Below are positions 540 through 64,000 of a DNA stretch of 64,000 nt, one piece after another; the stretch's first letter is position 1, and every line of letters begins with the position of its first letter. The notes below the pieces were generated by a model that did not search any database, was not told the DNA's origin, and saw only the letters and a program-made list of their open reading frames with translations. The DNA is from Torpedo marmorata (Eukaryota). The stretch covers positions 41,168,001 to 41,232,000 of the forward strand of contig OZ360226.1 of assembly GCA_977017645.1 (NCBI GenBank), read 5' to 3'. The translations under genes and the position numbers were made by a program.

Positions 540-1993
540 GTCAAACACGAAAATCTGTAGACACCGTGGTTGAAGTAAAAAACACAAATGCTGGAGAAAC
601 TCAGCAGGTCAAACAGTGTATTTTATGTAGCAAAGGTAGAAATACATAACCGACGATTCGGGCTTGAGCCCTTATGTAGCAAAGGCAGGAGATGATAGGT
701 GGAGATAAGGAGGGGACAGCAGCAAAGAGGGGGAGGAGGGATGGCTGGGTGTGTGGAAAAAACAGGAAGGACAGGTGAGGGGGGAGGGGGGAAGGAAAAG
801 ACAAGCAGGTTTAGTGGAAAGCAGAAAAGTCAATGTTAATGCCATCTGGCTGGAGAGTGCCCAGACAGAAAATGAGACGTTGTTCCTCCAATTTGCGGGT
901 AGTCAGGGTGGGATAGTACATAAGGCCATGGACAGACATGTGAGTGTGGGAGTGTGACTCGGAATTGAAATGGTTGGCTACTGGGAGGTCGCTGTTGTTG
1001 CGGTCGTAGAGGAGGTGCTCAGCAAAACAATCTCCAAATCTATGACCGGTCTCTCCGATGTAGAGAAAGCCACAAAGGGAGCACCGGATGCAGTAAATAA
1101 GTTCTCTGGATGTACAAGTGAAGTGTAGTTTCACTTGAAAGGCCTGTTTGGGGCCCCGGACCGTGGTGAGGGGGGAGGTGTAGGCGCAGGGGTTGCACCT
1201 CCTGCGGGCACAGGGGAAGGTGCCGGGGGTGCGATGGTTGGGGAGGGATGAGTGCACGAGGGAATCGTGGAGGGAGCGGTCCCTACAGAAGGCCGAAAGG
1301 GGAGGAGAAGGAAAAATGTGTCTGGTGGTGGGATCCTGTAGTAAGTGCCGGAAAGTCCGGCGGATAATGTGTTGGATGCGGAGGCTGGTGGGGTGGTAGG
1401 TGAGGATGAGGGGGATTCTATGTTTGTTGCGTCTGGGGGCAGAGGGGGCCAAGGCAGATGAGCGGGAAATGGAGGAGATGCGGGTGAGGGCTGAGTTGAT
1501 GGTGGTGGTGGGGAAGCCACGTTTGTGGAAAAAGGCAGACATTTCAGAAGATCTGGAGTGGAACACCTCATCTTGGGAACAGATGCGGCGGAGACGGAGA
1601 AATTGAGAGAAGGGGATGGAATCCTTGCAGGGGACAGGGTGTGAGGATGTGTAGTCAAGATAGTTGTGGGAGTTGGAGGGTTTGTAGTAAATGTCGGTGG
1701 AAAGCTTGTCTCCTGAGATGGAGACAGAGAGATCCAGGAAGGGGAGAGTGTTATCGGAGATGGACCAGGTGAGTTTGAGATCGTGGTGGAAGTTGGATGT
1801 GAAGTGGATGAAGTTGACAAGCTCATCGCGGGTGCATGAGGCAGCCCCGATGTAGTCATCGATATAACGGAGGAAGAGATGAGGGGTCTTGCCTGTGTAG
1901 GCTTGCAGCATGGATTGCTCCACAAAGCCCACAAACAGGCAGGCGTAGCTGGGACCCATGCGCGTACCCATGGCTACTCCTTTGATTTTGAGG
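540..1993 (-). mobile_element. Penelope-like retroelement (Neptune type), 5'-truncated, with 14-bp TSD
   Basis: Carries an RT + GIY-YIG ORF, a CT-rich 3' UTR and a terminal segment shared with the copies at 26936 and 42723. Direct repeat aagtaccacatgaa at 526-539 and 1994-2007. Confidence 0.93.
811..1993 (-). CDS. Penelope-like RT C-terminal half + Cys-rich linker + GIY-YIG endonuclease (5'-truncated ORF)
   Basis: GVAMGTRMGPSYA, RYIDD and LPFLD RT motifs; CARRRCNPC..HFTC linker; LIYCIRC..C..LYIGET GIY-YIG motif; C-terminus PDGIN. The first residues of the ORF call (MFMWY) are read from the flanking TSD. Confidence 0.9.
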
Positions 1994-2808
1994 AAGTACC
2001 ACATGAACACTGATCAAACCAACTGAGCCAAACATCCTGTCTTGGCTGTAAGATTCACAGATCCATCATTCACAAGAGACATTGGAATTATTGCATATAG
2101 CTCAGTATTTGCTGGACAAAATAAAACATCTTGGAAGTGGATTATGTTTCCAGTACACTAGAAAGGCAGGTGGCTTGTAAAACTTCTTTGATGGTTTGGT
2201 AAATGAGGCCACATTATGGCCTGGTGTTCAAGCAGAGAATCATCTCATTTTCAGTTCAGTTTCTTCTATCTGCAGTTACTCTACTCGCCAGAAGTAAAGC
2301 TACTGGTTTCTTAATTGGACGAGTCCCCTTAGTTAGGATGTGAGGAAGATAATCATGAATTCTTGTTTCTGATCCCAATTCAGCAACCATTGCAATGTCT
2401 GGGGTTTTGACTGAAAAGGGTCTCAGACTTGAAATTGATTTCCTGACTTTTACACGTGATATCGTGATGTTGCATTCCACATCTGAAACTTTCAATTCAA
2501 TTCGAAGCCAATGGAACCACAGTGCACTGCTGGTGCAGCGAAGCACTACACATAGGTAAAGTTCTTCCAGGAAATTCCTTCACTGTCATACATAGTGCTA
2601 ACACTATTATGATATGCATCAGTACTTAGAAGAATGACCAGATTGGTTGATTACCAACCACACTGGAATATTCAGCAACAGTCAGCAGAGTAGGAAACAC
2701 AAGTACGTGCTGAACAAGTCCCATGTTATATGCCCATTCCACCTGAAACTTTGTACCATGCCTTGACTGTCAGATCTGCCTATTTAGATTATTGGCTAAT
2801 ATTTGATG

Positions 2809-9395: not shown

Positions 9396-9399
9396 GACA

Positions 9400-10632
9400 A
9401 TGCCAAAATGGCGCCTTACAGCGGCGACTCTGTGAGCAGCTCTGATGGGAATAATCAAATATTCCCGTTCAGAACTTCTAAAAATCAAACAAAAAAGGAG
9501 AAACATAAAATCAAACTTACCCGACAACATGGATGTACTAAGATCGCTGGCAGACCTTGGAATCGGCAGAATCGGCAGTCTCCGTCCGGCCGCGGTACCT
9601 TTAAACAGCTCACGCAAGTACAACAAAAACACCGCGGGAGTTTTAAACAGCCAGAGAATGGGCCATTTAAACTTCGCGGGAGTCGAAGACAGCAGGCACT
9701 CAGCACACTTAAATATTGCGGAGGATTTAAAGGGACAGCGCAAGGACATTTTAAAAACCGCGGGAACTACCAGCAGCGGACCCATGGGCCAGGTAAAGAA
9801 GACCCGACAATGTGGACGCAGAGGGGGGCTACAGGTCAAGCTGAGACGCTGGGACCTGAAGCTTCCACTCCCTACCATCCTCCTGGCCAACATACAATCC
9901 TTGGAGAACAAACTTGATGAATTCCAAGCCAGACTTCAACATCAGGGAGTGCTGTGTGATGTGCTTTACAGAAACATGGCTAAATGCGAACATTCCGGAC
10001 ACAGCGCTGCAGCCCAAGGGCTACACCGTCCATCGCGCTGACTGAACACCGGCTTCTGGAAAAACCAGGGGAGGCGGCGTTTGTGTCATCATCAATTCAT
10101 CATGGTCCACAGACGTGACGGTCACGTCCCAGTCCTGCTCCCCCAACCTGGAACATCTGGCGATCAAGTGTCGCCCATTCTACCTGCCGAGGGAGTTCAC
10201 CGTCATCATCTTGGTCGCAGTGTACATTCCGCCCCAGGCTAACGTCGGGCTGGCACTGGAGGTGTACAAGCAGAGACTAAAGACAACAGCACCAGTGGTG
10301 AGGACGGTGAAAGTATGGTCGAGGGAGGCGAAGGAGCTTCAGCAGTACTGCTTTGAATCAGTGGACTGGAACATATTCAAGCACTCATCCATAGACCTGA
10401 ATGAATATGCAACAGGTGTCACCGACTTCATCAAGACCTGCGTGGATGAGTGTGTGCCCACGCGCAAATACCGGGGTGTTCCCCAACCAGAAGCCCTGGA
10501 TGAATCAGAGAATTCGCAACCTGCTGAGGGCAAGAACAAGGGCGTTTAAGGCCGGGGACCGGGATCTTTACAAGAAGTTCAGGCACGACCTGCGGAAGGC
10601 CATCTCTGAAGCAAAGTGGCAATTCCAGAGAA
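9400..10632 (+). mobile_element. Rex1/Babar-like LINE 5' part (APE endonuclease region), frameshifted and internally deleted
   Basis: KYSRSELL, LPTILLANIQSLENKLDE, (F)TETWL, CRPFYLPREFT..VAVYIPP and FPNQKPW motifs are spread across frames. Confidence 0.88.
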
Positions 10633-13132: not shown

Positions 13133-14665
13133 GTCAGAATTAGAATCAGAATTTATTGTCATGAACAAGTCACAAAATGTGTTGTTTTGCGGCAGCATTA
13201 CAGTGCAAATATTCATATAAACCACCTTACAACAATAAATAAAAATAGTGCACAAAAAGTAAAAGTAAGGCAGTGTCTTTGGTTCATTGATCATTCAGGA
13301 ATCTGATGGCAGCGGGGAAGAAGCAGACCTTTTGCTGCTGAGTGCTCGTCTTTAGGCTCCTGTATCTTTTTTCCGATGGTAGCATAGTGAACAGGGCATG
13401 GCCTGGGTGGTGGGGGTCCTTGAGGATAGAGGCTGTTTTCTTAAGACACCGCCTCTTTAGGTGTCCTCGATGGAGTGGTCTGGTGCCCGTGATGTCGCAG
13501 GCCAAGTTAACAACCTTCTGGAGTTTTTTCTTGTCCTGAGTGTTGGCACCTCCTTACCAGACAGTGATGCAACCAGACAGGATGCTCTCCACTGTATACC
13601 TGTAGAGGTTTTCGATAGTCTTCTGTTACATACCAAATCTCCTCAAACACCTCGTAAACTATAGCAGCTGGCAACCCTTCTTCATGATTGCATCAACATG
13701 GGGGCTCCAGGACAGATCCTCGGAAGTGTTAATACCCAGGAATTTGAAGTTCTTGACCCTCTCCACTACTGAGCCTTCGATGAGGACTGGGTCGTGTTCT
13801 CCTGACTTCCTCCTGAAGTCCACAATCATCTACTTGATTTTGCTAATGTTGAGCGCAAGATTGTTGGTGTGACACCACTCAACAAGCTGATCTATCTCCC
13901 TCCTGTACGCTTCCTCATTGCCGTTTGTGATTCTGCCGACAACTGTGATGTCAACGGCAAATTTGTAGATAGCATTGGAATTGTGCCTGGCCACACAGTC
14001 ATGGGTGTATAGTGAGTAGAGCAGTGGGCTAAGCATGCATCCTTGAGGTACACCTGTGTTGATAGTCAGTAAGGATGAGACATTTTTACCAATTTGTACT
14101 GACTGTGGTCTTTCGATGAGGAAGTCAAGGATCCAGTTGCAGAGGGGGTTGCAGAGGCCCAGGGTTTAGAGCTTCTTGACCAGCACTGAGGGAATAATGG
14201 TGTTGAAGGCTGAGCTGTAATCTATGAAGAGCAGCCGTATGTATGAGTTGCTGTTTTCGAGGTGATCCAGAGCTGAATGGAGAGCCAGCGATATTGCGTC
14301 TGCTGTGGAGCGATTGTGACAATAGGCGAATTACAGTGGATCCAGACCTTTGCTTAGCTACATGTTAATTCTGGCCATGACCAACCTCTCATTTCATCAC
14401 AGTAGATGTTAGTGCTAGTGGGCGATAGTCGTTGAGACAGCTCATACTGCTCTTCTTGGGCACTGGGATGATTGATGCCCTTTTGAAGTAGGTGGGAACC
14501 TCTGACTGCAGCAATGAGAGGTTGAAAATGTCCGTGAACACTCTGGCTAGTTGGTTGGCACAGATTTTCAGTACCCTGCCAGGTACTCCATCAGGTCCTG
14601 ACGCCTTGCGAGGGTTCACCCTCTTGAATAATGTTCTGACGTCAGCCTCAGAGACAGACATCATA
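13133..14665 (-). mobile_element. Rex1/Babar-like LINE, 5'-truncated, frameshifted
   Basis: [40 protein letters not shown](V)D, ILKDPHHPGH; (ttctga)n-like tail at the left end. Confidence 0.93.
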
Positions 14666-17528: not shown

Positions 17529-17730
17529 TCTCAGAGGCGTGTTACATTTCACCTCCCCGATGGCTCCCAGGAAAGCTGCAGTGATAGTGGTCTAGGAGAC
17601 CATGAGCCGGTAAATGGTGGCCTGCTGATCTCACACCCTCTCCCTCTGGTTCAGCCGCAGGACGAGTTCTACGAGCAGGCTTCCCCAGACAAGAGGACCG
17701 AGGCCGATGGCAATTCTGACCCGAACTCTA
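17529..17730 (+). CDS. pcdh9: Protocadherin-9 internal coding exon (cytoplasmic domain with CM3/RRVTF and CM1)
   Basis: Polypyrimidine tract + AG (17527-28); 202 bp translating to [67 protein letters not shown] + 1 nt; then a GTAAGT donor. Nearly identical to the mammalian PCDH9 penultimate exon as I recall it. Not in the ORF track. Confidence 0.97.
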
Positions 17731-21649: not shown

Positions 21650-24550
21650 GAATTGATTTCTTGCCATGTTTCTCTTTGACCGTTGCATGAAGTTATATCC
21701 TAAAGTATTAAAATTGTTTTCTGTTTTACAGTGTACTTGTCTTCATCAATTAATATCATGTACAGAGTCTCTACAGGTACCTGCAACACACTTATAGGAT
21801 GATTTGTTTTGATATACAGAATATGAACTTCAGAGATTTTAAGTTGCTTCATAAGTACCTTCAGGAGCCCCTGAGATTTTATTGAGATTTCATTGGTTGG
21901 CAGGGAAAAGAAAAAAAACATATTCCATTGCTTGAAAATGCTTTTGATTATAAATTTGTTGTAATGATCCAGCTCAATTACATATATTAAATTTCCTGCT
22001 CCCAACCCAAGTAGTGCAAAGATTTGCCTGTAGTTTCCTCTAAAATGACCTGGGGAATGCCTACTTCCTGATGACATGACCAGTTAATGTGTCCTTCTGC
22101 CCAGAGAGCATTGTATTGGAGTGGAGATGAAGAGGCAGACACACATTGAGCTGAGGAAAATTAATGTTGACGTTATTTTTGCGATAAATTATTGGTGAGG
22201 TATAGAATTTGTGGGAAATGGGAAATCTTTGGCACCAGCAGTTGGACTTTTCCTGGTCATGTTTAGCTATGGTGTGTATCTTCATTCTATCTATTGCAGC
22301 AAGGTGTTGTGGCCTGAACCTGACTGAATAAGCCCTGAGTATAGCACTTTAGTGTTGCCTATCTTGTAGTGTCTCACTTCTGAGTCAGAAAGAAACTTAT
22401 GAGTGCAAATCCCACTTAGTATGCTTAATCATTAAAATCAAGATTGATGCTGTCTGTTGCACATAATTTTCAGTGATACAATTTCCTGAGCCCTCTTCAG
22501 CTGGACATAAAAAAATTCCCCTGTCCTCCAGTTTGAAAGAGAATGGAGACATTATTCCCAGCATGCTGTCAAATGTTTATCCCTCCGATGACATTATTGT
22601 GACAGACAGCGGTACAATTTCATGCACTATTTTCTGCATGAGCTCATGATAGATTTTTATTGTATTACTTTTGATCTCTGCTTCTGAAATTTGCTTGCCT
22701 GGATTTTAAATCTAAGATGAATATGAATGGTTTAGCACATTGTGCATTCAACATGCAAAAGCGGGCACAAATATCTCCACCAATCTGGCTCTTCTCGCAT
22801 GGGAACTCCACTTCATTGGTTGTAAATATTTTGGGCCATTCTAAAATTCTGGAAGGCATGGTTCAAGTAGAGAATTTGCTTATTTTGTTCAATGTTTCCA
22901 TCTCACACTCCAATTTTCCTTGTGGCCTCTGAATGAGATGATCCGATTGGTGTCAATAAATGATGAACTATGATTGAATTTTCTTGTGGTTTTGTACTCA
23001 CGAACCACATAGATGTACAGCTGACAGCCAAGATCGAACAACTACTTCTGTGCCACGGATGGTATGCTAATCTACAGCAACACCTTGTATCTGACATATC
23101 ATATATTTTATGAGTGCTGTCAAATGAGGGTTAAGTTTTAGGTTTTATTTAATTCCTTCTTCCCACAGTAAGATTGACTTATTGTCTATGAACATTCTTG
23201 GAACCTGTTCTTTTCAGATTGAATATTGATTGATATCTCACCAAAGAGTTTTGTTTCATTATCTGTGGACAACAGTGTGTAGCTTCTGTGGCAATACTCT
23301 TATTCCCATGTTTGTCTTTGCCTTCATATTTGATTTATAAATCCACAGAGATCACTTTACTCTCTAACAATCACAATCCGTGCAGTATCAGTCAAGATTG
23401 TACAGGTTGAATACAAGCTCCCAGGGTTAAGTCTTGAAGTCAGCAGATATTGTGGTGTCTGATATGTCATGTTAACTCGTGAGCCAGATGCCAACAATGC
23501 AGCCTGGCCGAAGTGTGTCAGTGAGTTGCTGTGGTCCATAACTGTTTGACCATTGGCCAAGATCTACAAATGCAACAGACATCGAGTTGACATTATACAG
23601 GAGCTCACACAAAAGCTGACAAATTCAGGGCCAGGTCTGAGTTGAACTTGATTGGGGATGAGTGCATTAAATTGGAGAACAGGAAAGAGATATTCCAGAT
23701 GCAAACAAGTGAATGGTGACAGGCCTGTGATCACAGGACTGGCTTGTGGGATGAGGGTTGGTTCAGGAGATAGGAACCTAGGGGTGGGGTCAGGGTTCTC
23801 AGACAATAAATACTCAGGAGCTAGTGGGTGTGGGAAATTATTGAGCAAGTGTTGCAAATGTAGGGTTGGTGGAGATGGTGTACAGCAGAAGTCCGATCAA
23901 AATAAGAATGTATGAAAGGAATGTACTTTTGTCAAGTTCTAGAGCCTGGTTGGGAGGATAGCTTTAAATTGGATTCCCAACAAGCAAGGAGTGCCAATGA
24001 AACACATGGAGCAATAGTTGGACATTCTCTGAAATTAGTATAAATTTATATCAGGCTCTTTAGCCCATGACCAGCACCTTGTTGTTGTGTTGTTGATGAT
24101 CTTGATCCTTGACCACTTACTGTCTCTGAAGAGATTTTCTTTTTCTTTTCTTTCCTTTATCTCCTTTCTTCTTTTGCAAGATGGTGCTTGAGTGGAATGC
24201 AAAAGAAAGCTTTTCATTGTATCTCAATACACGTGACGATAATACATAAATCGAAATCTATTGCTCATCACTCTTTCTCGAGTCAGACCATGGCATCTTG
24301 TCTTCAGTATGGCGATGTGTACAAAGATGACTGATTAGACCTACCTTTCAAATTGGTGACAGAGGTGCAGGGATTTTTTGGCATCAGTGGTTCTTGTTTT
24401 TTTGAGATTCTTTTTTCCTCTTTGCTTCCTCCATTCAAGCTTCCTCATATAAATGAGCACCACAATTTTTTGTGGGTATGCCGAGCAGGATGATCCAGTG
24501 CTTGTTGTTTCTCATAGTATGTGTCAACGTTGAAATGCTTCAGGGATGTT
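21650..24550 (-). pseudogene. Possible very ancient Gypsy-like pol relic
   Basis: Short ORF pieces in the expected order: AALLASGSRVN (protease-like LLDSGS, about 23500) and GGDICARFCMLN / FILDLKS (RT-like, about 22700-22790). Weak, by-eye similarity only. Confidence 0.3.
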
Positions 24551-30355: not shown

Positions 30356-32756
30356 TCCCATTTTCATCTTGATTTATGAATTCCTGGTTTAGGCATTTTT
30401 TTCTGTAACAATTTATACATTTGAGAAATAAATTTATTTATACCCCCATTAGTAACTTGTAGCTCCAATTCACTTTGCCTTGGTAAAATTAAACTATGAC
30501 CCAACTTTTCAACTAAAAATGCTCTCATTTGATAATAAGCAGAGTGTATTATTTAGTACATTAAACTTCTCTTTCATTCTTTGAAAAGTGATAAATTTAC
30601 TAGCTTCAAAACAATCACTTACTTTTTTAATCCCTTTTTGAAACCAAATTTTAAACAATTGATTATCTATAGTAAATGGGATAAATTTATTTTGATACAA
30701 AGGCATTTTACGAGAAATTAATCCTTTCCCTCCTAACTCCCTATCCACATTATTCCATATTTCTAACAAATGCTTTAAAATAAGAGAGTGTTTACCTCCT
30801 CTTAATAGTAATTTGGAATTCCATTTATAAATAACATCTTCTTTCGAATCTTCTCCTATATTATTTAATTCTATTCTAATCCAAGCAGAAGATTTTTCTA
30901 AATCAAACATTTCATTAATAAATTTTAATTGAGCTGCCTTATAATAATTTTGAAAATTGGGAAGTTGTAAACCTCCCATTTCATAATTCCAAGTTAATTT
31001 CTTCATACCTACTCTAGCCAACTTTCCTTTCCACAAAAATTTCCTAATAATTAAATTTAAATCCTTAAAATTTTTTTGAGGAATTTCATAAGGAATTGAT
31101 TGAAAAGGATATTGAACTCTTGGAAAAAAACATTCATTTTAATACAATTTACCCTTCCTATTAAAGTTATAGGTAAATCTTTCCAACTCTCTAAATCTTT
31201 TTTAATATTAGTATAGTGACTTTAATCCAACAATAGTCACTTGGAGGCTAGGTGAGATATTTGTTTTTGACGCGTTTCAATTAATTTACTAACAAAGTTC
31301 GATATGTTCAAAAAACTTTATTTACATACGTGACTTGCAGCAATCTTCAATGACTTAAATATCTTCTTTAAACAAAACAAACAGTTCTTGATAATGATGT
31401 TTAATAAATTCCTTTAAACGATTCCTTTGACTGTATTTAGATGTTCAATTAAATGACTTTAAAGACTTTAAACCATAAATGAAACGTGTTTAAATGTTCA
31501 ATGAAACGGTCAATAAAAATATGGCGATCTCATTCACCCTCCTCCGTCGCCATCTTTCTCTTTTCTTTTTCCCGATTCGCGCATGCCCACCGCGCACATT
31601 CTACCGCGCATACCACATCGCGCATACTCCACTGTGCATACTGCCGTCAATTCCCAACTGCGCATGTGCCCGTCGGCACTCTAGCACATGCGCAGAGTAC
31701 TAAATAGGCCTAGCACGGCCTAACAAACACCGCGACTCCTCCGTAACCAGCCAGGACCATTGGAGCTCCGCGACCAAGGTAAGTAATCAAGCCTACGGCT
31801 CTTACAATTAGTAAATAATGGTAAGTAATTTAATTTATATAAATCACCTAATTTTGTATCTATTTTTATTCCCAAATATTTAATTCCATTATTTGACCAT
31901 TTAAAACGAGTAATTTCTTTACATTTATTATAATCTCCTTGCGTCAATACCATAATTTAATTTTTATCAGAATTAATCTTATAACCAGATATTTCCCCAT
32001 ATTCTCTCAATAAAACAGTCAATTGTGTTAAAGAATCAATAGGTTTTGTCATGTAAATCAGTACATCATCTGCAAATAAACTAATTTTATGTTCTTCTTT
32101 TCCAACTTTAATACCTACAATCTTAATATCTTGTCTAATTAATTCTGCTAAAGGTTCTATTGCTAAAATAAACAATGCTGGTGACAAAGGGCATCCTTGC
32201 CTAGTTGACCTAGTCAGCAAAGATTTTGAAGAAATTTGTCCATTTGTCACTACTCTGGCAGGGGGTTCTTTATATATAGTTTTAATCCAATTAATAAATG
32301 TATTTCCAAAACCAAATTTTTCTAACACTTTAAATAAATAATTCCATTCTAATCTATCAAAAGCCTTTTCAGCATCTAATGTTCATGCATACCACTTGAA
32401 AAAATTACATAATTTACGTAATAAATATCATTTCTTTTTGAAGGTATGGAGCCCATATATAAAAACTGTGGGTTTAAAGATTTGAAGATCTCTTGCCATC
32501 GGGTCTGACTGGCAAACCTGTGATCCACAATAAAATTAATGTATCGTTGTTTTCTTTTAGATTGACATTCTCCACTATCTATTCTTTTTTTCTTTTCTCT
32601 CTTTTTTATTAGAGTAGTAGGGGTGGGTGGGTTAGGGAGGGGGAAGGGAGGGAGGGGAGGGTGAAAATATATCACATGTATTTTGATATTTCTGAAATTT
32701 ATAAACATGTATTATCGTGTGATTAAAAATTTTAAATAACATATTTTTTTAAAAAA
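30356..32756. mobile_element. L1-clade LINE insertion with 5' inversion: ORF2 segment on - (30356-32377), ORF2 end/3' UTR/poly(A) on + (32378-32756)
   Basis: LDAEKAFD, RQGCPLSP, LFADD and GGLQLPNF on -; CIPLEKI..FLKVWSPY, a G-rich UTR and an A tail on +; 17-bp TSD aggaagacttaagtggc at 30339-30355 and 32757-32773. Confidence 0.92.
31212..31806 (-). mobile_element. Solo LTR (595 bp) inserted in the L1
   Basis: Minus strand reads tgtaag...gtcacta(t)a; the sister copy at 10898 ends in taca. 5-bp TSD attag at 31207-31211 and 31807-31811. The L1 sequence resumes exactly across it. Confidence 0.82.
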
Positions 32757-41041: not shown

Positions 41042-42190
41042 AAATCATATATCTTTGGACAAAGCCATGTAGAATGTACAAAAGAACCTTCCTCTCTATT
41101 ACATCTAAAACATAAACCTGATAATGTCGGATTAAATTTCTTTAATTTCTTAGGTGTTAAATATAATTGATGTAAAAATTATATTGCACCAACCTATATC
41201 TAACATTAATAATCTTCGCCATTCTTTGTTTACATATTTCTTTCCAATGTTCCTCATCTATCTTTACATTCAAATCTGATTCCCATTTTAATTTTGATTT
41301 ATGAATTCCTAATTTAGGTATTTTCCTCTGTAACAATCTATACATTTGAGAAATAAATTTATTTACACCTCCATTAGTAACTAATAATTCCAATTCACTT
41401 TGTCTTGGTAAAGTCAAACTATAACACAACCTTTCAACTAAAAATGCTCTAATCTGATAATAAGCAAAAAGTGTATTATTTAATACATTAAACTTTTCTT
41501 TCATTCTTTGAAAAGTAATAAATTTACTAGCTTCAAAACAATCATTTATTTTTTTAATTCCTTTTTGGAACCAAATTTTAAACAATTGATTATCAATAGT
41601 AAATGGAATATTTATTTTGATATAAAGCCATTTTTCAAGAAATTAACCCTTTCCCTCCTATCTCCCTATCCACTTTATTCCATATTTCTAACAAATGTTT
41701 TAAAATAGGAGAGTTTTTACCTCCTCTTAATAGTAATTTAGAATTCCATTTATAAATAACTTCTTCTTTCAAATCTTCTATATTATTTAGTTCTATTCTA
41801 ATCCAAGCAGAAAATTTTCCTAAATCAAACATTTCATTAATAAATTTTAATTGAGCTGCTTTATAATAATTTTGAAAATTGGGAAGTTGTAAACCACCCA
41901 TTTCGTAATCCCAGGTTAATTTCTCCATACCTACTCTAGCCAACTTTCCTTTCCGCAAAAATTTCCTAATAATTAAATTTAAATCTTTAAAGAATTTTTG
42001 AGGAATTTCGTAAGGAATTTATCGTAAAAGATATTGAATTCTTGGAAAAACATTCACTTTAATACAATTTACCCTTCCTATTAAAGGTAAATCCTTCCAA
42101 CTTTCTAAATCTTTTTTTAATATTCATAAATAATGGTAAATAATTTAATTTATATAAATTAGCTAATTTTGTATCTGTTTTTATTCCCAG
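41042..42190 (-). mobile_element. L1-clade LINE ORF2 fragment, same family as 30356-32756
   Basis: ORFs 41635-41958 and 41157-41585 closely match the ORF at 30509-31036. Confidence 0.9.
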
Positions 42191-49391: not shown

Positions 49392-51357
49392 TGGTAGAGG
49401 AATTTAACCCCTAGATCTCGATACCCCAGCTTGGGGAAGCATTATCCCTTCATCTTTACTCCAGTTTAAACATTTGTCCAACGGGATTGTGCCAGTGTTT
49501 TTATTCTGTTTAAGGCTCCTCCTACTTCCGAGTTGAACTGTTCCTTTATTTCCATAATGAGCAGATTAGTTTGCTGCACGTTTCCTTTTTCCCCTCAATT
49601 ATTTCTTCTGGGATTGAATTCCACGATCTATCATTCTCTCAATTTCTCCAAAATTCTTTTCAGGATTTATGGTTCACTGCCTTGTATTGAAAGATATTTG
49701 GTGCAATTTGTGCAAGTGTCAGTTAGGGAGGAGATCAGGGATGAGATAGGCTGGGTGAGGAGTAGTTTAGAAGCAGGTTAGGGAGGTGATGAGGAACTGG
49801 GAAAGAAGACAGGGGGGTTTTGGGGGAGAATATGGGAAGATAATCAATGAGATCAGATTTCAGATTTATTGTCAAAGTGCATACATGACATCACATACAA
49901 CCCTGAGATTTTTTTTACCTGCGGGCGAGGCAGAACTGCCAAATATTGGTAATGCAAAAAAACTGTACACAATGAACACATGTAAACAAATAAAGAAATG
50001 TAAACAGATAAGAAATGTAAATAAACTGACTACAATATAAAGAGAATTAAAAAATCAATAAAATGCAATAAAAGTAAGAGTCCTTAAATGAGTCCCTGAT
50101 TGAATTTGTTGTTGAGGAGTCTGATGGTGGAGGGGTAGCAGCTGTTCCTGAACCTGGTGGTGCAAATCTTGTGGCACCTATACCTCTTTCATGATGGTAG
50201 CAGCGAAAACAGAGCGTGTGCTGGGTGCTGTGGATCCTTGATGATTGCTGCTGCTCTCCGACGGCAGCGTTCCCTGTAGATGTTCTCGATTGTGAGGAGG
50301 GTTTTGCCTGTGATGTCCTGGGCTGTGTCCATTACCTTTTGGAGGGCTTTATGCTCAGGAGTATTGGTGTCCCCGTACCAGACTGTGATGCAGCCGGTCA
50401 GCACACTTTCCACTACACATCTGTAGAAATCCCCCAATGATCACTGGATCGTATACCTCTGGTTTACTCTTCCTGAAGCTCCTTGGTTATGGTAACATTG
50501 AGTGCAAGGTTGTTGTTGATGCACCATTCAACCAAGTTTTCAATCTCCCTCCTGTATGCTAACTCATCGCCTTTTTTTATACAACCCACTACAGTGGTAT
50601 CATCGGCAAATTTGTAGATGGTGTTATTGTCGCACCGAGCCACACAGTCGCAGGTGTAAAGTGAGTAGAGCAGGGGGCTAACAACACAGGCATGTGGTGC
50701 TTCGGTACTGATGGAGATTGTGGAGGAGATGTTCTTACCAATCCTCACTGATTGTGGTCTGGACGTGAGGAAATCAACGATCGAATTACACAGTGGGGTG
50801 TTGAGTCCCAGGTCTTGGAGTTTGCTGAGCAGTTTTGAGGGGATGATGGTGTTAAATGCTGAACTGCAGTCGATAAAGAGCATCCTGATGAATGCATCTT
50901 TGCTGTACAGGTGTTCCAGGGCTTTGTGTAGAGCCAGTGAGATGGCATCCACCGTAGACCTGTTGGTACGATAGGCGAATTAGAACAGATCCATGTTGCT
51001 GCTCAGACAGGAGCTGATATGCTTCAACACCAGCCTTTCAAAACACTTCATCACTGTTGATATGTGCTACTGTCGATAGTCATTAAGGCAGGTTACTCTG
51101 CTCTTCTTGGGCAACAGTATGATTGATGCCTGTTTGAAACAGATGTGTACCACGCCCTGCCAGAGTGAGATGTTGAATTATGAGATGGAGCACAGGTAGA
51201 AATTTGATAGGGAATGATGTGACAAAAGTTGTTGGAGGTGTCCAATCTCAGGTGGGTTGTTGGGGAGATGTTTGGTGGAGGTGATCACTTTTGGTGGTAG
51301 AGGAATTTAACCCCTAGATCTCAATACCCCAGCTTGGGGAAGCATTATCCCTTCATC
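49392..51357. repeat. 63-bp direct repeat pair (49392-49454 and 51295-51357)
   Basis: tggtagaggaatttaacccctagatctc(g/a)ataccccagcttggggaagcattatcccttcatc; one mismatch. Confidence 0.95.
49854..51179 (-). mobile_element. Rex1/Babar-like LINE, third subfamily, 5'-truncated
   Basis: [36 protein letters not shown]; short direct repeat atgagat on both sides. Confidence 0.9.
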
Positions 51358-51552
51358 CATCCACTCAGATCCTATTAAAATTTTGTATGTTCTTCTCTCA
51401 CTCTTCCAAACATAAGAAAGCATGAGCTCTCTTATCATATTAATCTCTATCATAAGGCATTAGAGCTAGTGCATATTATACGACCATTTTTGATCAGGAA
51501 GCAACCAGGTTTGGCAAAGCAGATATATTTCGATATGGTCTGTAGATCTAAT

Positions 51553-52538
51553 ATCAGAATCAGAATCAGAATGAGAATTTATTGTCATGAACAAGTCATG
51601 AAATTCGGTATTTTGCGGCAGCATCATAGTGCAATTAACATTCATATTAACCATCTAACGACTTTACTATAAAAAAATTATAAACAATAGTGCACGAAAA
51701 GTAAGGCAGTGTCTTTGGTTCATTGATTATTCAGGAATCTGATGGCAGCGGGGAAGAAGCTGTCCTTGTGCCGTTGAGTGCTCGTCTTTAGGCTCCTGTA
51801 CCTTTTTCCCGATGGAAGCAGAGTGAAGAGGGCATGGCCTGGGTGGTGGGGGTCCTTGAGGATAGAGGCTGCTTTTTTAAGACACCGCCTCATGTAGATG
51901 TCCTCGATGGAGTGAAGTTTGGTGCCTGTGATGTCACAGGCCGAGTTAACAACCTTCTGGAGTTTACTCTTGTCCTGGGAGTTGGCGCCTCCATACCAGG
52001 CAGTGATGCAACCAGCCAGAATGCTCTCCACGGTACACCTGTAGAAGTTTACGAGAGTCTTTGGTGACATACCGAATCTCCGCAAACACCTTACAAAGTA
52101 TAGCCGCTGACGAGCCTTCTTTGTGATTGCATCCACGTGGATGCTCCAGGACAGATCCTCGGAGATGTTGACACCCAGGAATTTGAAGTTCTTGACCCTC
52201 TCCACTACTGAGCCCTCGATGAGGACTGGGTCGTATTCCCCTGACTTCCTCCTGAAGTCCACAATCATCTCCTTGGTTTTGCTGACGTTGAGCTCAAGGT
52301 TGTTGCCATTACACCATTCAACGAGCTGATCTATCTCCCTCCTGTACGCTTCCTCATTGCCGTTTGATATTCTGCCGACAACTGTGGTGTCATCGGCAAA
52401 CTTGTATATGGCATTGGAATTGTGCCTGGCCACACAGTCATGAGTGTATAACGAGTAGAGCAGTGGACTAAGCACGCATCCTTGGGGTGCACCTGTGTTG
52501 ATAATCAGTGAGGACGAGACGTTGTTTCCAATTCGTAT
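51553..52538 (-). mobile_element. Rex1/Babar-like LINE 3' part with an uninterrupted 251-aa RT C-terminal ORF (51720-52475)
   Basis: [45 protein letters not shown]; (ttctga)n tail; same family as 13133-14665. Confidence 0.95.
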
Positions 52539-52906
52539 TGGAAATGATCAACAATACTAAAGGCTGGTCAGGCCTTTGTACTACTAAAGAGGTTTATCCC
52601 TAATCTTAGACAGTCAACTATGGATTTGTGAGGGGCAGGTCATGTCTTACCAATTTGATTGAGTTGAGTAGGGCAGTGCATGTTGTATACATGGCATGTT
52701 TTTGACAAGATCCCTCATGGTAGGCTGATTCAAAAGGTGCAGATGCATGGTGAAATGATAGTTTGGAAAGGAAATTTTCTGGCCCATAGCAAGCAAGGTA
52801 GTGGTGGAAGGCTGTTATTTGCACAAGAGGTCCATGACCAGTGGGATACTGCAGGGATTGGTGTTGGGATCCGTATAGTTTGTGATATATATATAAATGA
52901 TTTAGA

Positions 52907-56573: not shown

Positions 56574-58165
56574 CAGTGGTTCTTAACCCTTTTCCCTACT
56601 TGCACCCTTTGCAAAGCACCAAGTAGTTCTCACACCCCTGTCCCCACTGTCATGAAAGAATAATAACATTATCATGGCTATCAATAACAGATTCATCATG
56701 GTTTTACATTTATTTATATTTTACAAATTTACAAATTTGGCAACTAACTGATTCACTACAATACCAAGGTAACTTCAAATTAGTAATTTTTTTATTCCAT
56801 TTGCTAGTACTTTGCATGGTGTGTTGCAAGAAATTGTGTTTGTGCACCAAGCTCAGTGACTTTGTTGCTGTTGTTTGTTCTCTATGATGGTATGGGGAAC
56901 CTCGGCGTCTTGCAGCTGAGTGCTATTCACATGTCGTGCTGAGCGTCCAACTGATTTCTGCACTTGGTTTTGATATGAAGCAGACACGAAAATCCAGTTT
57001 CACACAGATACGTGGTCGCAAAAGGCACTAGCACAGCGAGAGCCTTCCTAGCTAGTACAGGAAATGTTTCCAGCTGAGACGCCCAAAAGTGCTCCAGATG
57101 ACCCTCGGTGAACTCCATTTGGATTCCATGGTTGCTTCTCAAATCGTTGAGATCTTCTTTGACGTCACTGTCATCATCAATATCCTCCAAATTTATCCGG
57201 AAAAGATGCCTGATCCAGTTATCACACGCTTGCAGCTCTGCACACGAGAAGTAACCATCGAATGAAGTTTGCAGCATTTGAAGATGTTCAATAATAGTTG
57301 AAACAAAGACAGGTTGCAAGGAAGCATCCTCAGTGACTGTTCCTTCAAGGGATGGAAAATTCACCAAATTTCCCTTCATTACACGCCTAATCCATAAAGC
57401 AAGTTTTTCTTTGAATGCAACCAGCTTCTCGCTTGCAGTCACAATGGTGAGCCTTTTTCCCTGCAGAGAGCGATTGAGCTCATTGAGTGCTGTGAACACA
57501 TCAGCCAAATAGGCAAGCATCTGAACAAACTCAGGAGAATCAAAATATTCAGCTATGTCTTGTCGCTGTTCACGGAGAAACTGCTTAATTTCCTCTCGCA
57601 ATTCAAACACACGGGATAATACACAACCACGTGATAACCATCTTACTTCTGTGTGGTACAAAATCACAGTATATTCTTGACCCATTTCTTCGCAAAGCAA
57701 CTGAAACAGTCGATGATTCAAAACCAAGAAACGGTATATAGCCAAACCAAGTTTACATACTTAAAAACAGTCACAGGAGATCTCACTACAGTGCACGTCA
57801 ACACTCCTACTCGCAGACCAGTCTACACCCCATGCTGGAACAACAGGAAATGACTCCAATACCTTTTTGCAGACTATTGAAACATGAATCCGCCACCACG
57901 ATAACTCCGCCCCATCGCCGACAAGCACATACATGTACTCGCCTCTTATCTCTCGTTCTCCTTTGCACGCTACAAAACTTAATATACCCATCTATTACAT
58001 CCGCTCTTGTTTCAGAGCATAATATTTATTTATGTGGTCAATTGCATCATAAAAGTGACAAAATAAATATAATTTTTCTCCACATCCAAAAGATCAACCA
58101 TGTTTGAGTACAACTTACTCGCACCCCTAACAGACCTGTCTCGCACCCCTAGTTAAGCACCCCTG
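56574..58165 (-). mobile_element. Internally deleted hAT (Buster/Charlie-like) DNA transposon
   Basis: TIRs cagtggttcttaac / gttaagcacccctg; 8-bp TSD tcatagct at 56566-56573 and 58166-58173; subterminal gcaccc repeats. Confidence 0.95.
56927..57745 (-). pseudogene. C-terminal half of a hAT transposase (ZBED8/SCAND3-like family)
   Basis: HTEVRWLSRG, LAYLADVF..LNELN.SLQG, and LVPFATTYLCETGFS in the dimerisation domain; the N-terminal half is absent. Confidence 0.9.
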
Positions 58166-61230: not shown

Positions 61231-62071
61231 AGAATTATATAGAATTATCTCGACAGGTGTTAATGATACAATGCAACAATTGTTATAAATCTTGTGTGGA
61301 ATAACGTCTATCTGTTTCTTTACACATCAGAGAACAATACTGTACACTCTTTTCTTGACATGCCACAGGAGGAAAAAAACTGAGCACAATTTAATGCCCA
61401 ATCAATGAATATCACAAAATAAGCTATCCATCTCAATTATTATCTCTGACACATATACATTGTCACCTGGCACATGTTCACGTGAGGAAGATTAGAGTTT
61501 ATATAGTGAGAATATTTTTATGAACAAGCAGCTTGGGAGGTTTTACTGATTTAAAGATAAAGACAAGTTGTTGGCAATTGTCTGTGAATGGTTGTTCACC
61601 TAAAATTGTTTGGACATGAATTGTTTTGGAATATAATGATATAAATATTACTTTCTTATTATATCATATTATCTATGATATTTTCATATTATATATGATA
61701 ATATCATATTATCCATTATTAACTGGAGGTTGGGTTTGAACATAACCTGAACAGGGTGATGCATAATTCTTTCTCAGCTACTGATAACTAGAATGTGCTG
61801 GGATATTTGGATGCATATCCTGGTCACCACAATTCCTAAAACTGCCCATAATCTGATGTCCAGCCAAACTAAATTAGCAATGCCATTCAGAAGCCACAAG
61901 GTTGACAGGTGTGGATAATGAAAACAGTTTTCTGTAGATAATTAAATCAGTGATGCATTTAGAATGCAGCTTTAATAATTGACATTTAGTACCTTAATTT
62001 CCAAAGGGAAGCAACTTGACCTTTGCAAATGACTTTTCTTTCCACTCCGCACAGGCGGAAAGCTGACGAAA

Positions 62072-62465
62072 ATGGCGTTCACAATAGGCAAGCGGCAGAA
62101 GCCTACGTTCTCCATGTTGGCTACATGCATGCTTGTGAAACAGTTCTTAAAATTACAAAGATTATTCCTGGCCACAAAATCCAAATTGCCTGGTAGTCAA
62201 AGGCATCGCCGTGGCTGCAACCTTACAGGTGCCAAAGTCAACAAAGTTTCCAAACTAAGCCGAGCAGTTAAGGGCTTTCGAAAGCGTATCAATGACTTAT
62301 GGCTTGACGCTCGAGGAAAAGGCACATTTGACAAAAAGAGAGGGGCAGTCCAACACACAGATGTGGCAAAGGACATGATCCTAACATGGGAGGAAGAGAA
62401 AGTGACCCCGATAGTCCACCTTGTGCAACATGGACCTGATGCGTCCTGTGACTCCAGTGACTCTG
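62072..62465 (+). CDS. Myb/SANT-like (Harbinger ORF2 / MSANTD-NAIF1-like) protein, predicted coding exon 1
   Basis: aaaATGG Kozak context; KRQKPTFS..LV..LF..KVNKVS..R..RKRINDL..ARGK..LTWEEEKV follows the Myb_DNA-bind_5-type pattern; donor CTG|GTGAGT at 62465/62466, phase 1. Confidence 0.75.
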
Positions 62466-62698
62466 GTGAGTGTACATTGTTTTGTCAAACCCATCATTGC
62501 TTGCCTCGACCTTGGCTAACCATTAAGCATGCATTACAATTATTATGTGAATGATATTTTCAAAGCATATGTAAGTGGTTTTGCTCTGTAATTGAATGCA
62601 AGCTGCCTTGTGTCCAAAGCTCTGCTGCAATCCAATTCTTCAGTTTCTGGATCACCCTTCATCAGTTCAGCCGAATTTTTGTTCTTTTATCTCTTTAG

Positions 62699-63456
62699 AT
62701 GAGTACTGCAATTCAGGACACACAGGACCAAAGCAGCATCAAATCACTGTGATACTGGAGGAGAAGGTATCAGCCCAGACTCAAGCACTTGGAATGGTGA
62801 AGCAAGGTACAGAGACTGATGAGGTTCCACAAGGTTCATGTGAGCAATGTAGAGAAGACTCTGCAGGTGGACAATGGAAATCAGCCTCTTACTTGAAAGT
62901 GCCCCCCTCGGAGCAGTCCAGACACCAAGGGGCACATCAGCCAGAGGCAATGAGAGCTGCCCCTTCTTCTGTTCCACCAAATTCTCATAACACACATGAG
63001 GGGGAGCTGTGCCCCTTATGTCGCAGGTTAGATACTTTGGTGAGCACTGTGCAGCGTGGATTCAACCACATGCACAGGGACATCAACACATTGCAAAATG
63101 CCTCACAGTATCGCGGGGCACGGATGTCTCAGAATGTTATGTCTCTGGTTGGTGCCATGCATACACTGGTGAGGCTGCACCATTTCTCCACCTTGTCCCG
63201 TCGGGATGTTGCTATTCAGACCTCCATTGTGCTGAGAGAGACATGTCAGGGAGAGAATAATGGGGCAGCATCCAATGACCCCCCAACTGCCTCCACTGAG
63301 ACAGAGGTGACACCCACTAATAATGTCCAGCCAGTTAGTAACACAGCTGCACCCGAAGACACAGTGGTTGAAGTATCAATCGATCCTGATGGTGACTCTG
63401 CTGAGAGTATGTCCATTGAAGAATCCTCTCTAAACTCCTCAGACAATGACTGGTGA
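62699..63456 (+). CDS. Myb/SANT-like protein, predicted coding exon 2 (disordered region, helical segment, acidic tail)
   Basis: tttttgttcttttatctctttAG acceptor, phase-compatible (G|AT=Asp) with exon 1. Joined CDS is 394+758=1152 nt = 383 aa + stop, with no internal stop. Confidence 0.7.
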
Positions 63457-64000
63457 AGTCATTAGACCGATAATGAATCGACATTGCATTGATTAGAATT
63501 TATATACTTTCTCTTTCTTACTGTACGGTTAGATTTAAAGTTACATTTTTTCCAACAGTTCCAGGAATTTGTATGTTAGATTAAAATGATGCATGCAAAA
63601 AATTACATGGATTTAAATTTAGGGTTAGCTACAAAGTAATGAACACATTGTCCTATATCATGTATTTAATCAAAAAATTGTCTTCACTTATCTGTATTAT
63701 TTGGAATTCTTCATAAGTGTTTTCCACTTCCATAATTAATGTTGTTTCATATAAAAGGAGAATACATGTTATTCATCTTGTGCCATTGTCTGCTGTTTGT
63801 TTGTTGTTGGAAAAGTTGGTTGTGTTCTTCTGTTTCCCATCTTTACCTTGCATGGTGTGGAATAAATATTGTGTCTCCACCATTCTTTGTTCTGTGTATG
63901 CTTTTCATGCCCAAGGTATTTCCCATCTGTCCAAGTTTTACTCTAGCCTGACTTGGCAGAGAGGTCAGAGATCTCCAGAATTCTCCATCACATGTCTTCC

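Follow-up and report, generated by a model that had tools for sequence, protein, structure and literature searches.

CSB-PGBD3 is a piggyBac exon trap lying in intron 5 of ERCC6, with its splice acceptor 7 nt before the first Met (PMC2268245). The pcdh9 locus described here resembles it in that an intronic element serves as an alternative 3' end, joined in frame and with its own poly(A) signal, the acceptor in pcdh9 lying 17 nt before the Met, and in that the host form, the fusion and probably a solo form too coexist. CSB-PGBD3 differs in being a whole transposase with terminal repeats, about 43 My old and carried by a nuclear host (PMC2268245), whereas the pcdh9 module is a two-exon Myb-type accessory for which repeats were not found in the window, is carried by a transmembrane adhesion receptor and is common to sharks and rays. 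A second comparison is offered by TSNARE1, in which a Harbinger Myb-like domain is fused to a Qa-SNARE and in which the Myb part, as its authors suggest, may have a role in nuclear partitioning or else be a relic (bioRxiv 2021.02.09.430442). In both cases a Myb-like domain is encoded by an optional exon of a membrane-related host, but in TSNARE1 it is N-terminal and the host SNARE is the working domain, whereas in pcdh9 the module stands at the C-terminus and conservation is highest in a core of its own. In tetrapod host-transposase fusions, the acceptor lies just before the element ORF in 8 of 9 cases (bioRxiv 2020.05.07.082677), and pcdh9 shows the same capture by alternative splicing through such an acceptor; that survey deals with tetrapods, transposase domains and mainly KRAB, SET and SCAN hosts, and the words cadherin, transmembrane and Myb are absent from its main text.

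NAIF1 and MSANTD1-4 have been traced to a Harbinger Myb-like gene, with MYPOP and TSNARE1 listed as putative cases (PMC9392472). Like NAIF1, MSANTD1-4 and MYPOP, the pcdh9 module has a PF13873-type domain at a single fixed locus in jawed vertebrates; unlike it, these are stand-alone genes in which the tri-helix aromatics are conserved, and protocadherins are not mentioned in the available part of that source (PMC9392472). As regards the host, PCDH9 of rat neurons is cut in an MMP-dependent manner after NMDA and the fragment enters the nucleus (PMC12890670), and in cancer cells the NLS is needed for the PCDH9 fragment, the involvement of gamma-secretase being left as an open question (PMC10865395). 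The receptor and the basic NLS that follows its membrane span are the same here; the mammalian fragment differs in having no predicted DNA-binding domain, and the release of a fragment in cartilaginous fish is putative. We found no published description of a pcdh9-Myb fusion in the open-licence literature, and we report here that it is a real, old and lineage-wide case of exon capture on an adhesion receptor.

The pcdh9 exon, the splice acceptor and the reading frame

The window, that is, the whole stretch of DNA analysed, consists of 64,000 nucleotides of Torpedo marmorata. From it, the first-pass annotation had proposed that an acceptor whose AG lies at 62053-62054, 17 nt upstream of an ATG (62072), would join the pcdh9 exon, which ends in phase 1, to a Myb/SANT-like protein of 383 aa. 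The features on which this proposal bears are the following.

17529..17730, forward strand: penultimate coding exon of pcdh9, phase 0 to phase 1, with 95% identity to elasmobranch PCDH9 models.
21732..21776, forward strand: optional microexon of 45 nt, phase 1-1, with good splice signals, placed after the pcdh9 exon and before either the Myb or the CM2 exon; its use is seen in RefSeq models.
62030..62054, forward strand: splice acceptor, with a TGAC branch-like motif, a pyrimidine tract and CAG.
62055..62465, forward strand: exon E1 of 411 nt, phase 1-1, with a 5-codon linker, the ATG at 62072 in AAAATGG context, the Myb/SANT-like domain and an LTWEEEKV stretch.
62466..62698, forward strand: intron inside the module, 233 nt, GT-AG, absent from contigs of the sequencing runs X3, X12, X13 and X14.
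62699..63456, forward strand: coding part of exon E2, with a low-complexity linker, the conserved core, an acidic tail and the stop.
63457..63880, forward strand: 3' UTR, with AATAAA at 63861-63866, a likely poly(A) signal.

The coordinates proposed for the pcdh9 exon, the acceptor and the ATG hold in the window, and the frame that leads from 17730 to 62055 is open through the 383-aa protein once the intron at 62466-62698 is removed, with the stop at 63456. The pcdh9 exon, which we take to hold an RRVTF motif and a CM1-like stretch, is followed directly by a GTAAGT donor, and the microexon and the module exons are all joined to it in phase 1. The agreement in frame had been given a one-in-three probability of arising by chance; it goes beyond chance when the rank of the acceptor and the rarity of a phase-1 opening are considered. 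With a crude acceptor matrix, the AG at 62053-62054 ranks second among the 2932 AGs of 17800-63990, and among the 86 AGs that score at least 3, a phase-1 frame of at least 100 codons is opened only by those ending at 62054 and 62698. An equally strong in-frame acceptor within 60 nt upstream is found for four of 2714 ATGs on both strands, the one at 62072 included.

The pcdh9 exon also holds an inner acceptor (17653-17654) which is in use in RefSeq isoforms. Neither the CM2 exon nor any further optional upstream exon of the RefSeq models could be located in the window. The microexon is conserved, rich in Ser, Thr and Tyr, and present in 21 of the 57 listed RefSeq models described below, from eight species, once before the CM2 exon (P0046). 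Upstream of the acceptor, the intronic DNA of 61553-62054 is well kept, with 20 differences in 472 nt in run X6 and 2 in 74 in run X12, fewer than in E1 of the same run, and may represent a promoter or splicing element; at 61661-61713, 340 nt upstream of the acceptor, AT-rich DNA forms a short tandem repeat with a period of 20 and a hairpin of 16 bp.

The junction in contigs of a relative

Fourteen sequencing runs, none on record as RNA, match part of 61500-63900, and eight of the 14 were examined. X13 and X14 are two samples from one study of a close relative, organism E, about 94% alike to the window in E1; their library type is not on record and is probably RNA. Their contigs match the window from precisely 62055 onward and carry loose ends, 29 letters long in one case and 79 in the other; the loose end matches the pcdh9 exon at 17702-17730 in 28 of 29 letters, and nowhere else in the window does it fit with 9 or fewer mismatches; at least 31 letters on both sides of the junction are present in X14 only. 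The junction of 17730 with 62055, which the first-pass annotation had predicted and proposed to look for in reads, is therefore present in contigs of two samples, which come from a relative and not from Torpedo marmorata. The X13 contig spans it and also lacks the 233-nt intron, which is removed in contigs of four of the eight runs examined. The junction was not seen in the other six runs (X3, X4, X5, X6, X7 and X12), which, as these are contigs, is not proof of absence. Run X6 has no listed difference from the window across 62015-62065, and contig cover stops near the likely poly(A) signal, at 63877 in X4 and at 63826 in X5. The amino-acid changes of organism E in exon 1, compared by eye, are those of the Narcine model, so that the RNA-type and the RefSeq lines of evidence may share a source and not be independent. 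We hold it to be very likely that the fusion transcript is real and conserved.

Isoforms of sharks and rays

A search with E1 as query returned ten proteins, namely nine RefSeq models named 'protocadherin-9 isoform X' and one stand-alone model of Heptranchias; the fusion is thus already in automated annotation under that plain name. Our tally covers 57 listed models with the pcdh9 exon, from 12 species, drawn from cluster members (part of each cluster being listed) and from the profile search; models without it, two from Mustelus among them, are not counted. The XP models of RefSeq are predicted proteins, which in general draw on RNA alignments. E1 stands on the pcdh9 exon in 29 of the 57 listed models and in 10 of the 12 species: nine models, from five species (Narcine, Hemitrygon, Mobula, Scyliorhinus canicula and Stegostoma), have the direct junction of the 17730/62055 type, and 20 reach E1 through the 15-codon microexon. 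In 12 listed models from seven species, including the skate Amblyraja, E1 is skipped and the pcdh9 exon is joined straight to E2, with the core kept. A CM2 ending without E1 is found in 16 of the listed models, and the host CM2 form is still annotated in 7 of the 12 tallied species. In six listed models of catsharks, E1 and the start of E2 are followed by the CM2 exon, from which it follows that the module sits in the last pcdh9 intron, before that exon. Hemiscyllium, represented by a single model, is the sole tallied species without a module form.

The conservation of acceptor and frame, a further check that had been called for, is borne out by the exact junction in models of five species and by the 5-codon linker before the Met, which is open, of equal length and of the form GK-x-x-x-M in 10 of 10 fused species. 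The module tree follows the species tree, with one orthologous locus per species among the matches. The fused models P0001, P0008 and P0036 hold the cadherin repeats, the membrane span and the Protocadherin domain, whose exons lie outside the window. Of the alternative terminal module that had been suggested, the fusion stands, but not the simple layout, given the microexon, the forms that skip the Myb exon and the cassette form that continues into CM2: the alternative 3' end of PCDH9 common to sharks and rays is composed of an optional microexon, an optional Myb/SANT exon and a terminal exon. Protein searches, in which each cluster is shown by one representative, returned no fusion from chimaeras or bony vertebrates, a faint hint that it may be missing there.

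The catshark models leave E2 for the CM2 exon at an inner donor at 62866-62872 (GTGGAC in the window), whose use after 62866 would yield a tail with Myb and CM2 and without the core. Three Mobula models (P0022, P0023 and P0025) are without the cadherin part and begin with MGSDE directly before the pcdh9 exon, which points either to an internal promoter that gives a soluble form or to a faulty annotation.

It can be asked whether selection instead acts on a domesticated Myb/SANT gene that is nested here and has a start of its own, the splicing of pcdh9 being a tolerated by-product of a strong acceptor. Run X12 has a contig spliced at 62465-62699 that begins at 61981, inside the long intron and 74 nt upstream of the acceptor, in a stretch with 2 differences in 74 nt as against 26 in 410 in the exon; together with an ATG and a G at +4 that are kept in 11 of 11 sequences, this start indicates that a stand-alone product may be what selection preserves, and stand-alone models exist in Heptranchias and C. 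punctatum. However, the X12 contig may stem either from a solo transcript or from RNA whose splicing was incomplete, every fused species keeps the linker that precedes the ATG, as described above, and both the conserved microexon and the direct joins of pcdh9 to E2 fall outside any solo transcript. We therefore consider it unlikely that the nested gene is what is selected, while a stand-alone transcript may be present alongside the fusion.

Origin of the module

A profile search against 1.84 billion representatives gave 15 matches: a ray-like E1, a second elasmobranch gene that shares the core (two copies), and 12 PF13873 proteins. The PF13873 relatives include several salamander proteins (MYPOP-like), and the nearest matches are MYPOP-like and NAIF1-like. 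The module had been described as transposon-derived, and this is upheld as far as membership in the PF13873 family goes, but not as regards terminal repeats or a transposase in the window: no transposase remnant was found in 56 frames of 52.6-64 kb, and the 28 short pairs of inverted repeats in 58-64 kb include none that is convincing. Nor were multiple mobile copies found, the matches showing a single orthologous locus per species. The module is not an intact Harbinger element; a transposon origin is nevertheless probable, and from family membership alone we infer that the source would be of Harbinger type.

The module could alternatively have arisen from a duplicated host gene of MYPOP/NAIF1 type, and not directly from a mobile Harbinger. 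The lack of transposase remnants and of convincing terminal repeats in the stretches just given is in keeping with such a history, as is a tree that groups the module with no single outside group. Against it, the window extends just 550 nt past the stop, which limits the transposase search, the best-aligned relatives include several salamander copies and one KRAB-fused protein, and the core is also found in a second elasmobranch gene. Furthermore, NAIF1 itself, and putatively MYPOP, are of Harbinger descent (PMC9392472). Overall, a direct host-gene origin has a small share of the probability, and capture from a transposon is preferred.

The KRAB-fused protein (P0059, Ambystoma), in which a KRAB box is joined to two PF13873 domains, is another host capture of the same Myb type. 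Other remnants of mobile elements lie in the window. A 277-aa hAT transposase remnant is found at 56927-57760 on the reverse strand, with a Dimer_Tnp_hAT match below the cut-off; considered as a source of the module, it is unrelated. Remnants of LINE or other retroelements lie at 811-2013 (reverse), 9396-10549 (forward), 13830-14165 (reverse), 30509-32382 (reverse), 41157-42018 (reverse) and 50464-52547 (reverse), called from RVT_1 at 51720-52547 and otherwise judged by eye.

The Myb/SANT-like domain and the conserved core

The two parts concerned are the following.

62096..62347, forward strand: degenerate Myb/SANT three-helix domain (PF13873 type), aa 9-92, with both Trp anchors replaced (C49, I73).
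63001..63234, forward strand: conserved core, aa 233-310, with CxxC and predicted helices that show a heptad-like pattern; the DVAIQTS at its end (63205-63225) is a candidate LC8 anchor.

E1 of the window itself has no Pfam match at E 0.1. The family label Myb/SANT is given because two of the five orthologues tested, both from sharks, pass the PF13873 cut-off of 21.7 (Heptranchias with 24.6 and Stegostoma with 25.2), those of Narcine, Mobula and S. torazame having no PF13873 match; by Atlas features, E1 is similar to PF13873 clusters at 0.92. An alignment-guided model of E1 has helices at 15-34, 42-60 and 66-92 (pLDDT 70), and its best structural matches are of Myb/SANT type, with Z between 6.3 and 8.0: Sap1 (Z 8.0, rmsd 4.5, 101 aligned), NgTRF (6.9), Zeste (6.9) and GT-1 (6.7). 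Foldseek with the Myb model gave no match at E 0.001, nor did a sequence search of the PDB return one. Residues 1-92 hold 24 K+R against 3 D+E. Phe13 is kept in 8 of 8 module copies, but the conserved bulky aromatics of an intact tri-helix are not retained: the helix-2 Trp is kept in three of the eight copies, all from sharks, and the helix-3 Trp is Ile in all eight, against Trp in 12 of 13 outside relatives. Between the window and organism E, in which 26 differences in 410 nt of E1 were assembled from two runs, replacement changes outnumber silent ones by 15 to 5 in residues 1-90 (pN/pS 0.88, not significant), and residues 91-131 show 1 replacement and 2 silent (not significant).

On a fixed tree of eight species, the core has a tree length of 0.20, close to that of the ectodomain (0.18), as against 0.44 for the acidic tail, 0.53 for residues 91-131, 1.08 for Myb residues 1-90, and 1.46 and 1.49 for the linkers; the old cytoplasmic parts of PCDH9 lie at 0.08-0.10. 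The core is thus as slow as the ectodomain and under strong constraint; compared with the ectodomain, the Myb part is about five times faster, yet it is slower than the linkers. In the core, 62 of 78 columns are invariant across 11 sequences. It is predicted to be helical at low confidence (pLDDT about 50 or less; 37 for a fold of the whole module), and its heptads are hydrophobic at 13 of 17 positions in the best register. It is closed by RDV[AG]IQTS, with IQT in 11 of 11 module copies, about ten residues past the last long helix, itself predicted at low confidence. LC8 anchors are TQT, IQT or VQT, often beside a weak coiled coil (PMC12017986); an IQT beside a predicted helix fits the definition of an LC8 (DYNLL) client and makes this motif a candidate binding site.

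The core has no Atlas match at 0.9, and among stand-alone relatives of 215-685 aa (7988 candidates scored) only the query was returned. A second elasmobranch gene (P0057 in Rhincodon, P0060 in Narcine and P0073 in Chiloscyllium) shares the helical core, with RDVAVQSS, and P0073 seems to retain only the first helix of the Myb domain, a pattern which suggests that the core was kept more than once while the Myb part was lost. A Rad50-like zinc hook was set aside for the core CxxC, the paralogous core being without CxxC.

Proposed working of the fusion

We propose that the acceptor splices pcdh9 onto a two-exon module of the Myb/SANT family, which lies in the last intron of the gene in sharks and rays and is likely to have been captured from a Harbinger-type transposon. 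The new end would replace the CM2 tail, whose exon encodes delta-1 protocadherin motifs (PMC7339444), and would retain the basic NLS, which is present in four of the four fused models checked. The helical core and the IQT motif would self-associate and bind the LC8 hub, in a Swallow-like layout, and this scaffold would act at the membrane, or in the nucleus after an MMP-started cleavage as in mammalian PCDH9; if sharks share the mammalian cleavage, the module would be part of a freed fragment some 590 aa long. The Myb exon would be an optional, basic and eroded add-on, providing at most weak or non-specific contact with DNA or chromatin, or nuclear retention. The scaffold reading is adopted because the core is constrained and IQT invariant, because the Myb anchors are lost and because E1 is skipped in seven species. 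Points against it are that the junction runs belong to one study and that the Myb part is basic, gives a three-helix model and passes Pfam in two sharks. As a whole, this explanation, in which pcdh9 is spliced to a captured module that would give it a protein-binding scaffold tail, is the likely one; for a core-centred scaffold, dimerised with LC8, as the main job of the tail, we see the chances as evenly balanced.

The tail had originally been proposed to bind DNA; judged from sequence this role is doubtful, for the Myb domain has lost aromatic anchors and conservation is centred on the C-terminal core. The fullest form of the proposal would be a membrane-tethered transcription factor: a cleaved PCDH9 fragment whose Myb domain binds specific DNA, whose core dimerises and whose acidic tail activates, with E1 as the switch. 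The structural likeness of the model to the DNA-binding domains of Sap1, NgTRF, Zeste and GT-1 would fit this, although intact Myb domains abound in the alignment behind the model, and helical models commonly reach Z values up to 8. The same can be said of the 24 K+R, of a C-terminus that is conserved and acidic, and of an E1 frame kept in 10 species, but E1 is skipped in 12 of the 57 listed models and the Myb part, its Trp anchors lost, is fast-evolving and near neutral in the single pair tested. It also speaks for this reading that the mammalian PCDH9 fragment is nuclear without a DNA-binding domain of its own (PMC12890670); on balance a specific transcription factor is improbable. A slightly lower probability still is given to a Notch-like, membrane-tethered gene regulator made from a synaptic adhesion receptor, in which activity-driven cleavage would free a PCDH9 fragment with the captured Myb domain, an LC8-clamped dimerising core and the acidic tail, and in which one exon would switch the contact with chromatin. 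That the fusion is an artefact of annotation or assembly, with models copied between species and chimeric contigs, is hardly credible: XP models are predicted and a contig does not stand for a single molecule, but in both samples the junction coincides precisely with GT and AG signals that lie 44 kb from each other, the isoform sets vary among species and the core is strongly constrained.

Meaning of the capture

The shark-ray split took place roughly 270-300 My ago, and the capture has been kept since before it. Known captures of transposon exons are mostly on nuclear regulators, whereas the pcdh9 case concerns a brain adhesion receptor, one which in people is tied to autism and depression. 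Expression and cleavage can be tested in catshark, bamboo shark and skate, all of which are laboratory species. The fusion serves as a natural experiment on the abilities of a released protocadherin tail that has been given a chromatin-type module, and it suggests that the part kept after capture can be the protein-interaction end of an element and not its DNA-binding end.
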